From a plasmid: 64,000 nucleotides of DNA. The stretch lies in assembly GCF_058153355.1 (NCBI RefSeq), contig NZ_JBLWLY010000002.1. One strand, given 5' to 3'. Positions 37,471 through 37,498 of this stretch are shown here, one piece after another; position 1 is the first letter of the stretch, and the number at the start of each line of letters is the position of its first letter. The translations under genes were made by a program, and so were the position numbers. Under the pieces are notes generated by a model. That model ran no database searches. It worked only from the letters and a program-made list of their open reading frames with translations, and was not told the origin of the DNA.

Positions 37471-37498
37471 TTTATTTATTTATTTATTTATTTATTTA
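37471..37498. repeat. (TTTA)7 tetranucleotide repeat
   Basis: Seen directly, about 200 bp upstream of the fimbrial major subunit gene. Confidence 0.9.

Follow-up and report, generated by a model that had tools for sequence, protein, structure and literature searches.

A polymorphic TTTA repeat upstream of a plasmid-borne Pix/Pap-like pilus operon is probably a microsatellite seeded at the tip of a decaying IS630-family element

Introduction

Upstream regions of adhesin operons are where contingency repeats occur in several pathogens. To our knowledge, E. coli is generally held to lack repeat-based phase variation, and a pure tetranucleotide tract of 28-32 bp is unusual for this species. A 64-kb stretch of plasmid DNA, hereafter the window, contains such a tract next to an insertion sequence (IS) and upstream of a pilus operon. 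A preliminary description proposed that changes in unit number alter promoter spacing and switch fimbrial expression, or else that the tract is just the IS630 target region. Here, we ask where this repeat came from, whether its length varies, and whether it is likely to control the pilus genes.

Results

The tract is a slippage-capable repeat far beyond chance

The repeat at 37471-37498 is a perfect TTTA x7 of 28 nt, in the context ...GTGTAGCGGTATTAGGATCA (TTTA)7 GTTATGTTGGAG..., and both of its flanks are unique (left GTGTAGCGGTATTAGGATCA, right GTTATGTTGGAGTTATTC). Tandem Repeats Finder (TRF) reported the array at 37470-37503 in the ATTT register, with a period of 4, 8.5 copies and a score of 61. 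The exact 28-mer pattern has a single occurrence in the 64-kb window; with 3 mismatches allowed, it was still absent from all 100 dinucleotide-preserving shuffles. The tract is the sole long short-unit repeat of the window and the longest perfect repeat of unit 2-6 within it. Against its 28 nt, the longest perfect repeat reached 15 nt in 100 whole-window shuffles and 18 nt in 2000 shuffles of the local 76% A+T region. The (TTTA)7 tract is real and lies far beyond chance, and its seven perfect units over 28 bp form an uninterrupted repeat capable of slippage.

The sequence, TRF and the exact-pattern search all bear out the perfect seven-unit tetranucleotide repeat of the preliminary description. 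Its placement of the tract about 200 bp upstream of a fimbrial major subunit gene also holds: the tract ends at 37498 and the ATG stands at 37699, so that the tract spans -228 to -201, and the gene product carries a Pfam Fimbrial domain with ~70% identity to PixA.

The tract very probably derives from the right end of an IS630-family element

Aligning the DNA left of the pilin gene with IS630-family (ISSpu2-like) copies, we resolved the following features (slashes mark the borders of the element).

36341-37498, plus strand: defective IS630-family (ISSpu2-like) IS, 1158 bp including both flanking TA copies, inserted as C/TA/G
36341-36359, plus strand: left inverted repeat, TAAATAAGCGTTCCAAATA, with C as the preceding base at 36340
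36444-37456, plus strand: transposase pseudogene (DDE_3), in two frames via a 13-bp deletion and with an in-frame stop near 36767
37460-37498, plus strand: right inverted repeat, TATTAGGATCA followed by TTTA x7, with a GATC inside at 37466-37469
37471-37498, no strand assigned: the tract as part of the IS, read as the expanded outermost 8 bp of the right inverted repeat and including the TA target duplication at 37497-37498

Two overlapping ORFs (36444-36782 and 36773-37456) bear the DDE_3 transposase domain (Pfam, E 1e-20), and together they show 77-82% amino acid identity to an intact 343-aa transposase, interrupted by a frameshift and a stop. With its transposase gene broken, the window element is dead. 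Its inverted-repeat arms at 36341-36359 and 37460-37478 align with the inverted repeats of L001 and other relatives, which places it in the family. The preliminary description called the element a remnant, but it is not truncated, since both ends are present, though its transposase gene is broken. Like members of the IS630/ISSpu2 group (IS630/Tc1/mariner superfamily), it has a DDE_3 transposase of ~343 aa, ~20-bp terminal inverted repeats ending ...GGATCAGTTATT and a TA duplication within CTAG. It differs from them in that the window copy is ~81-84% identical to intact copies by alignment, has a broken transposase gene and carries 20 bp of additional TTTA units at its right tip.

The ends of the relatives tell what an unexpanded tip looks like. 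Five intact ISSpu2-like relatives with readable right ends (L001, L010, L017, L019, L020), from E. coli, Klebsiella, Shewanella and an unclassified Enterobacteriaceae plasmid, read ...TATTAGGATCAGTTATTTA/G, or in short form ...GGATCAGTTATTTA/G, at a CTAG target. A sixth copy (L018) contributed its left end only, its right end lying outside the right-end search pattern. The left ends read C/TAAATA in all six copies. In the window, the left end reads C/TAAATAAGCG (36340-36350) and the right end GGATCA(TTTA)7/G, and the homology with the intact copies extends into the TTTA repeat. The TA duplication within CTAG (C/TA...TA/G at 36340-36342 and 37497-37499) is as in the five relatives with both ends readable. 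A passage in PMC2170065, citing Tenzen & Ohtsubo 1991, describes TA target duplication by IS630 and its preference for TA within CTAG.

The first 8 tract bases (TTTATTTA) equal the canonical terminal GTTATTTA with one G-to-T change (7/8 match), and this change plus five extra units (20 bp) suffice to convert the canonical end into the tract. From TA to TA, the canonical element measures 1156 bp and the window copy 1158 bp (1156 +1 -13 -6 +20). As far as its origin alone is concerned, these comparisons make it very probable that the tract is the expanded right-end tip of an IS630-family element. Of the two proposals in the preliminary description, the "IS630 target region" came closer to the truth, as the tract consists of the IS right end and the TA target duplication in expanded form. 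Likewise, the tract does adjoin IS630-family sequence as described there, but as the terminal 28 bp of the IS and not as DNA following it.

Placing the IS end at GTTATGTTG (37499-37507), which would turn the tract into an insertion inside the element, was rejected, as it leaves no TA duplication and no CTAG. TTTA expansion was seen in none of the five right-end-readable relatives. Searching for expanded IS630 ends gave 0 matches in 100,044 representative genomes (one per species) and 6 matches in the JGI metagenomes, all in unrelated AT-rich DNA.

Repeat number differs between two near-identical lineages

Performing exact-protein look-ups with six proteins of the locus, we always retrieved the same three public assemblies, which we compared with the window assembly.

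Window assembly: 7 TTTA units, the reference for differences
Logan SRR31441161: 7 TTTA units, no differences from the window over the 4.3 kb compared
Logan SRR28786219: 8 TTTA units, substitutions at 35987 and 41499
NCBI GCA_043012465.1: 8 TTTA units, substitutions at 35987 and 41499

The two lineages differ by one length change in 28 bp as against 2 substitutions in ~6.6 kb, and the tract is the sole length difference between them. The polymorphism rests on these two lineages, the pair of assemblies within each maybe representing one strain. A polymorphic tract in near-identical lineages is as slippage predicts. The preliminary description had suggested comparing unit number across isolates; the comparison gives 7 versus 8 units in four assemblies of two lineages, and the repeat is not invariant. 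Most probably, the tract behaves as a length-polymorphic marker. We also sought the locus in 5,426 complete E. coli genomes and in PLSDB plasmids, where matches were to the IS part and to distant pilin genes only. Exact-flank scans with the right flank of the tract returned nothing from the representative genomes or the JGI metagenomes.

The pilus operon lacks the regulators of its family

Downstream of the tract lies a chaperone-usher operon.

37699-38232, plus strand: PixA/PapA-like gene for the major pilin, 177 aa, signal peptide present, AGGAGG as ribosome-binding site
38308-44929, plus strand: remaining chaperone-usher operon, encoding a PapH-like protein, usher, PapD chaperone, PapJ and three minor pilins, all ORFs intact

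The pilin is ~70% identical to E. coli PixA and related proteins. The Pfam domains of the operon (Fimbrial, Usher/PapC_N/PapC_C, PapD_N/C, PapJ) and its pap gene order assign it to the pi type. It is collinear with the Pix-like operon of E. coli A41, sharing the gene order A-H-C-D-J-K-...-F and 88% identity in usher and chaperone. Judged by these similarities, the pilin gene is a new Pix/Pap-like member on an IncF plasmid.

Performing tblastn with PapB (from L014, L015 and A41) and PapI (from A41), we found no PapB or PapI homologue within the window. In the related operons, PapB lies beside the pilin gene in L014 and L015, and genes of the PapB and PapI families stand at the 3' end in A41. 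A GATC pair 102-103 bp apart is present upstream in the relatives L007, L009 and L015. The 102-bp pair is absent upstream of the window operon, where GATC occurs at 37466 (in the IS end) and at 37525, 59 bp apart with 7 units and 63 bp apart with 8. In contrast to the Dam/Lrp/PapI/PapB switch of Pix/Pap operons, the window operon is thus without PapB, PapI and the 102-bp GATC pair. Its upstream region is an IS end plus 200 bp of orphan DNA, and a PixG-like adhesin gene lies inverted on the far side of the segment. On the evidence of these searches, the usual epigenetic switch of the Pap/Pix pilus family is gone from the window operon and has no recognisable replacement.

Some features of the related operons are recorded here. 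The Pix-like operons L007/L009/L027 (E. coli A41 and MS1494 chromosomes) carry, ahead of the pilin gene, two pap-type GATC sites exactly 102 bp apart. The regulator genes of the PapB and PapI families at the operon 3' end of A41 (L027) lie beside pixG, and a 446-aa protein annotated as an FKBP-type isomerase is encoded among the minor pilin genes. Upstream of pixB in L015 (E. coli GCA_900448155.1), positions 2153-2250 hold five direct repeats of TGCCAAA..(T/C)GATCG at ~23 bp spacing, each with a GATC; these lie upstream of the canonical 103-bp GATC pair.

The tract lies outside any promoter-like spacer

Between the IS end and the pilin gene, we mapped four features.

37499-37698, plus strand: orphan leader, 200 bp (37470-37699 is 76% A+T)
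37514-37539, no strand assigned: AT-rich palindrome around the leader's single GATC (37525-37528); several registers allow its right arm to pair with the tract
37536-37570, plus strand: terminator-like A/U-rich hairpin with a T run, weak (-7.4 kcal/mol, z -1.8, not significant)
37566-37594, plus strand: candidate sigma-70-like site TTTATA-17-TATCAT, 9/12 matches, weak

Performing a consensus scan of 37300-37800, we found no promoter-like site overlapping the tract. The candidate at 37566-37594 is the sole plus-strand site there, so that the candidate -35 nearest to the tract stands 68 bp downstream, and promoter-like sites in this interval are no more numerous than expected from shuffles. (TTTA)n contains no -10-like hexamer, as none of its hexamers combines the A at position 2 with the T at position 6 that a -10 requires. 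The tract lies outside the pilin ORF and outside any promoter-like spacer. The proposal that slippage alters promoter spacing and expression therefore stands only as to the variable unit number (7 vs 8); the promoter spacing is unsupported, as no promoter-like site contains the tract.

The leader has no detectable homologue in the complete E. coli genomes, the representative genomes or the JGI metagenomes, and local alignment with shuffles gave no significant similarity to the upstream regions of related operons. By eye, TTATGTTGGAG... resembles L007, and the leader was considered as a pap-type regulatory relic; this was rejected, as the local alignment reached a z of at most 1.4 against shuffles. 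Performing tblastn, we found no PapB remnant in the 200-bp leader. The tract/leader region has no Rfam match, and the RNA fold of 37455-37600 is no better than that of shuffles (z -0.9).

Positions 37582-37644, between the tract and the pilin gene, hold a 20-codon ORF (MKVSFYCKYCLTSMEGIICI) that follows a perfect AGGAGG at a distance of 4 nt. The same ATAGGAGG motif stands before the pilin ATG.

The locus is embedded in IS debris on an IncF plasmid

The window from 47500 to 64000 carries an IncF backbone (traI, traD, traX, finO, IncFII repA), ~92-95% identical to many E. coli plasmids, and the closest public assembly is labelled E. coli. With an IncF transfer and replication backbone in its right third, the window is part of a conjugative plasmid with an IS-rich accessory region. 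Perfect (100%) inverted repeats of 1849 nt at 30509-32357 and 44940-46788 bracket a 12.6-kb segment with the whole pilus operon, and they carry IS110-family transposase genes (31100-32275 on the minus strand, 45022-46197 on the plus strand). Homologous recombination may invert this segment, which may alternatively have arisen through an IS-mediated inversion.

Within it, the minus strand at 32414-33481 holds a 355-aa ORF with an MrpH_C adhesin domain, which aligns end to end with A41 PixG (22% identity, E 8e-12) and looks like the tip adhesin of the operon. This gene lies on the opposite strand and 4 kb upstream of the pilin gene, the expected position being after the last pilin gene. To the left of the IS630 copy, 36187-36339 consists of a ~106-bp IS3-family left-end fragment including the orfA start (MKRRNFSPEFKH), then 44 unassigned bp that include CTAGCTAG. 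It seems that the IS630 copy either landed in older IS debris or became joined to it.

Discussion

We favour, at a probability of roughly 70%, the reading that slippage at the tip of a decaying IS630-family element gave rise to the tract as a microsatellite, probably without a dedicated regulatory role. An ISSpu2-like element would have inserted at CTAG, duplicating TA, 200 bp upstream of the plasmid-borne Pix/Pap-like operon; the IS-free form of the locus would read ...GGACATCTCTAGTTATGTTGG. A G-to-T change in the right-end GTTA-TTTA would then have created a two-unit TTTA repeat, to which slipped-strand mispairing would have added five units in the window lineage and six in the sister lineage. 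As the IS is dead by a transposase frameshift and a stop codon, no selection would have kept its end intact, and the near-repeat at the tip may have expanded because it was freed from selection once the element died. We infer the order of substitution before expansion, slippage as the cause and the lack of a regulatory role.

The tract is most probably no dedicated pilus switch, because it lies outside any plausible core promoter and the operon is without the family regulators and paired Dam sites. The position of the operon amid IS debris (the IS3 fragment, the IS110 arms, the inverted adhesin gene) further lowers the odds of a tuned switch. Counter to this neutral reading, the tract is of a kind unusual for E. 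coli, it stands upstream of an adhesin operon with all ORFs intact, and its hypermutability is real and could be exploited.

The alternative that survives best, though improbable, is a distal rheostat or phase switch like that of nadA. Unit changes would re-space or re-phase sites in the IS end against sites in the leader, giving sub-populations with different pilus levels. One TTTA unit adds 4 bp, or ~137 degrees of helical twist. Candidate sites would be the GATC at 37466 or an IHF-like ATCA...TTA in the IS end, and the GATC palindrome at 37525 or the promoter in the leader. The length variation between near-identical isolates, the accompanying shift of the GATC-GATC distance from 59 to 63 bp, and the adhesin organelle encoded downstream by intact ORFs would all fit such a switch. 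In Neisseria meningitidis, the TAAA tract of nadA lies upstream of, and outside, the core promoter of the adhesin gene, varies by slipped-strand mispairing and acts at a distance (PMC2791445). The window tract is the same tetranucleotide on the opposite strand, at a similar upstream position before an adhesin operon and outside the core promoter. However, around the nadA tract NadR operators and an IHF site have been mapped and expression has been measured for each unit number, whereas the left flank of the window tract is IS sequence and any role of the tract is putative.

Against a distal switch, no operator, regulator or promoter is identified on either side of the tract, the left-hand "site" would be accidental IS sequence, and the operon is without the family regulators PapB/PapI. 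Known alleles number only two; the separation of the adhesin gene from the operon suggests decay over fine tuning; and no further example appeared in the representative genomes or JGI metagenomes searched. A passage in PMC4081817 describes the T-tract of Helicobacter pylori sabA, which lies upstream of the -35 of this adhesin gene and adjusts its expression by way of DNA geometry. The sabA tract, as described there, is a homopolymer with measured effects, whereas the window tract is a tetranucleotide with a putative effect. The literature on repeats in E. coli and on tetranucleotide slippage rates offered nothing directly usable. By analogy with nadA, one may further speculate that a dead IS accidentally gave E. 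coli a contingency repeat of this style. The expanded TTTA tip would then change length at high frequency and re-phase an IS-borne Dam/IHF-like site (GATC 37466) against the leader palindrome and promoter, tuning or switching the Pix-like operon without its PapI/PapB/Dam switch. We regard this as slightly less probable still.

A comparably low probability attaches to the possibility that the tract pre-existed in the DNA upstream of the pilus genes and that the IS landed within it at a TA. The target of IS630-family elements is TA, a step that recurs throughout (TTTA)n; moreover, unrelated IS debris lies left of the IS, and the original left flank is perhaps lost. The flanks speak otherwise: the C before the left TA and the G after the tract recreate the CTAG of five relatives, and the left flank of the IS is without any tract. 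In addition, the canonical IS end already gives 7/8 of the first tract bases, and no such repeat stands upstream of the related operons examined.

An assembly artefact is a very unlikely source of the 7-versus-8 difference. Short-read assembly can get repeat counts wrong, and both assemblies of a lineage are perhaps from the same reads; yet a tract of 28-32 nt with unique flanks is shorter than an Illumina read, and each count occurs in two separately built assemblies, tied to the same two linked SNPs.

The TA repeats of H. influenzae hifA/hifB and the C-tracts of Bordetella fim lie between the -35 and -10 of fimbrial promoters. The window tract shares with them its simple unit, its place ahead of a pilin gene and slippage as the origin of variation, but it sits in no credible -35/-10 spacer. 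A spacer switch of that style, with the tract between a -35 in the IS end and a -10 just downstream, is the least probable alternative and was rejected on geometry by the scan and by direct sequence reading: a weak -10-like TATGTT (37501-37506) and a weak -35-like TTAGGA (37461-37466) exist, but these hexamers are poor (4/6 and 3/6, under the scan threshold), the spacer would measure 34 or 38 nt with 7 or 8 units (a workable 18 nt corresponds to only 3 units), and the periodicity of the tract means that a -35 within it would stay equally far from a downstream -10 at any unit number.

Read as a microsatellite grown from an IS end, the tract is unusual but explicable, polymorphic and of a known kind. 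It would exemplify the birth of a bacterial microsatellite, in which an 8-bp near-repeat at an IS tip grew to 28-32 bp and varies between sister plasmids, and it is useful as a fine-scale typing marker for a rare plasmid lineage. It also cautions that a repeat upstream of an adhesin gene is not necessarily a switch. If unit number does affect pilus expression, contingency loci in Enterobacteriaceae can originate from IS ends, a route to their birth that would be new; such a role, if true, would matter to research on phase variation and on plasmid-borne adhesins.

Apart from the pilus locus, further identical direct or inverted repeats of 240 to 1250 nt or more, from multiple IS copies, occur throughout the window.

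Repeat set: 1500-2227 and 17919-18645
Repeat set: 5516-6768, 11494-12746 and 46786-47444
Repeat set: 19079-19378 and 48809-49108
Repeat set: 6820-7057 and 35424-35661

These scattered identical repeats give the window many openings for rearrangement.
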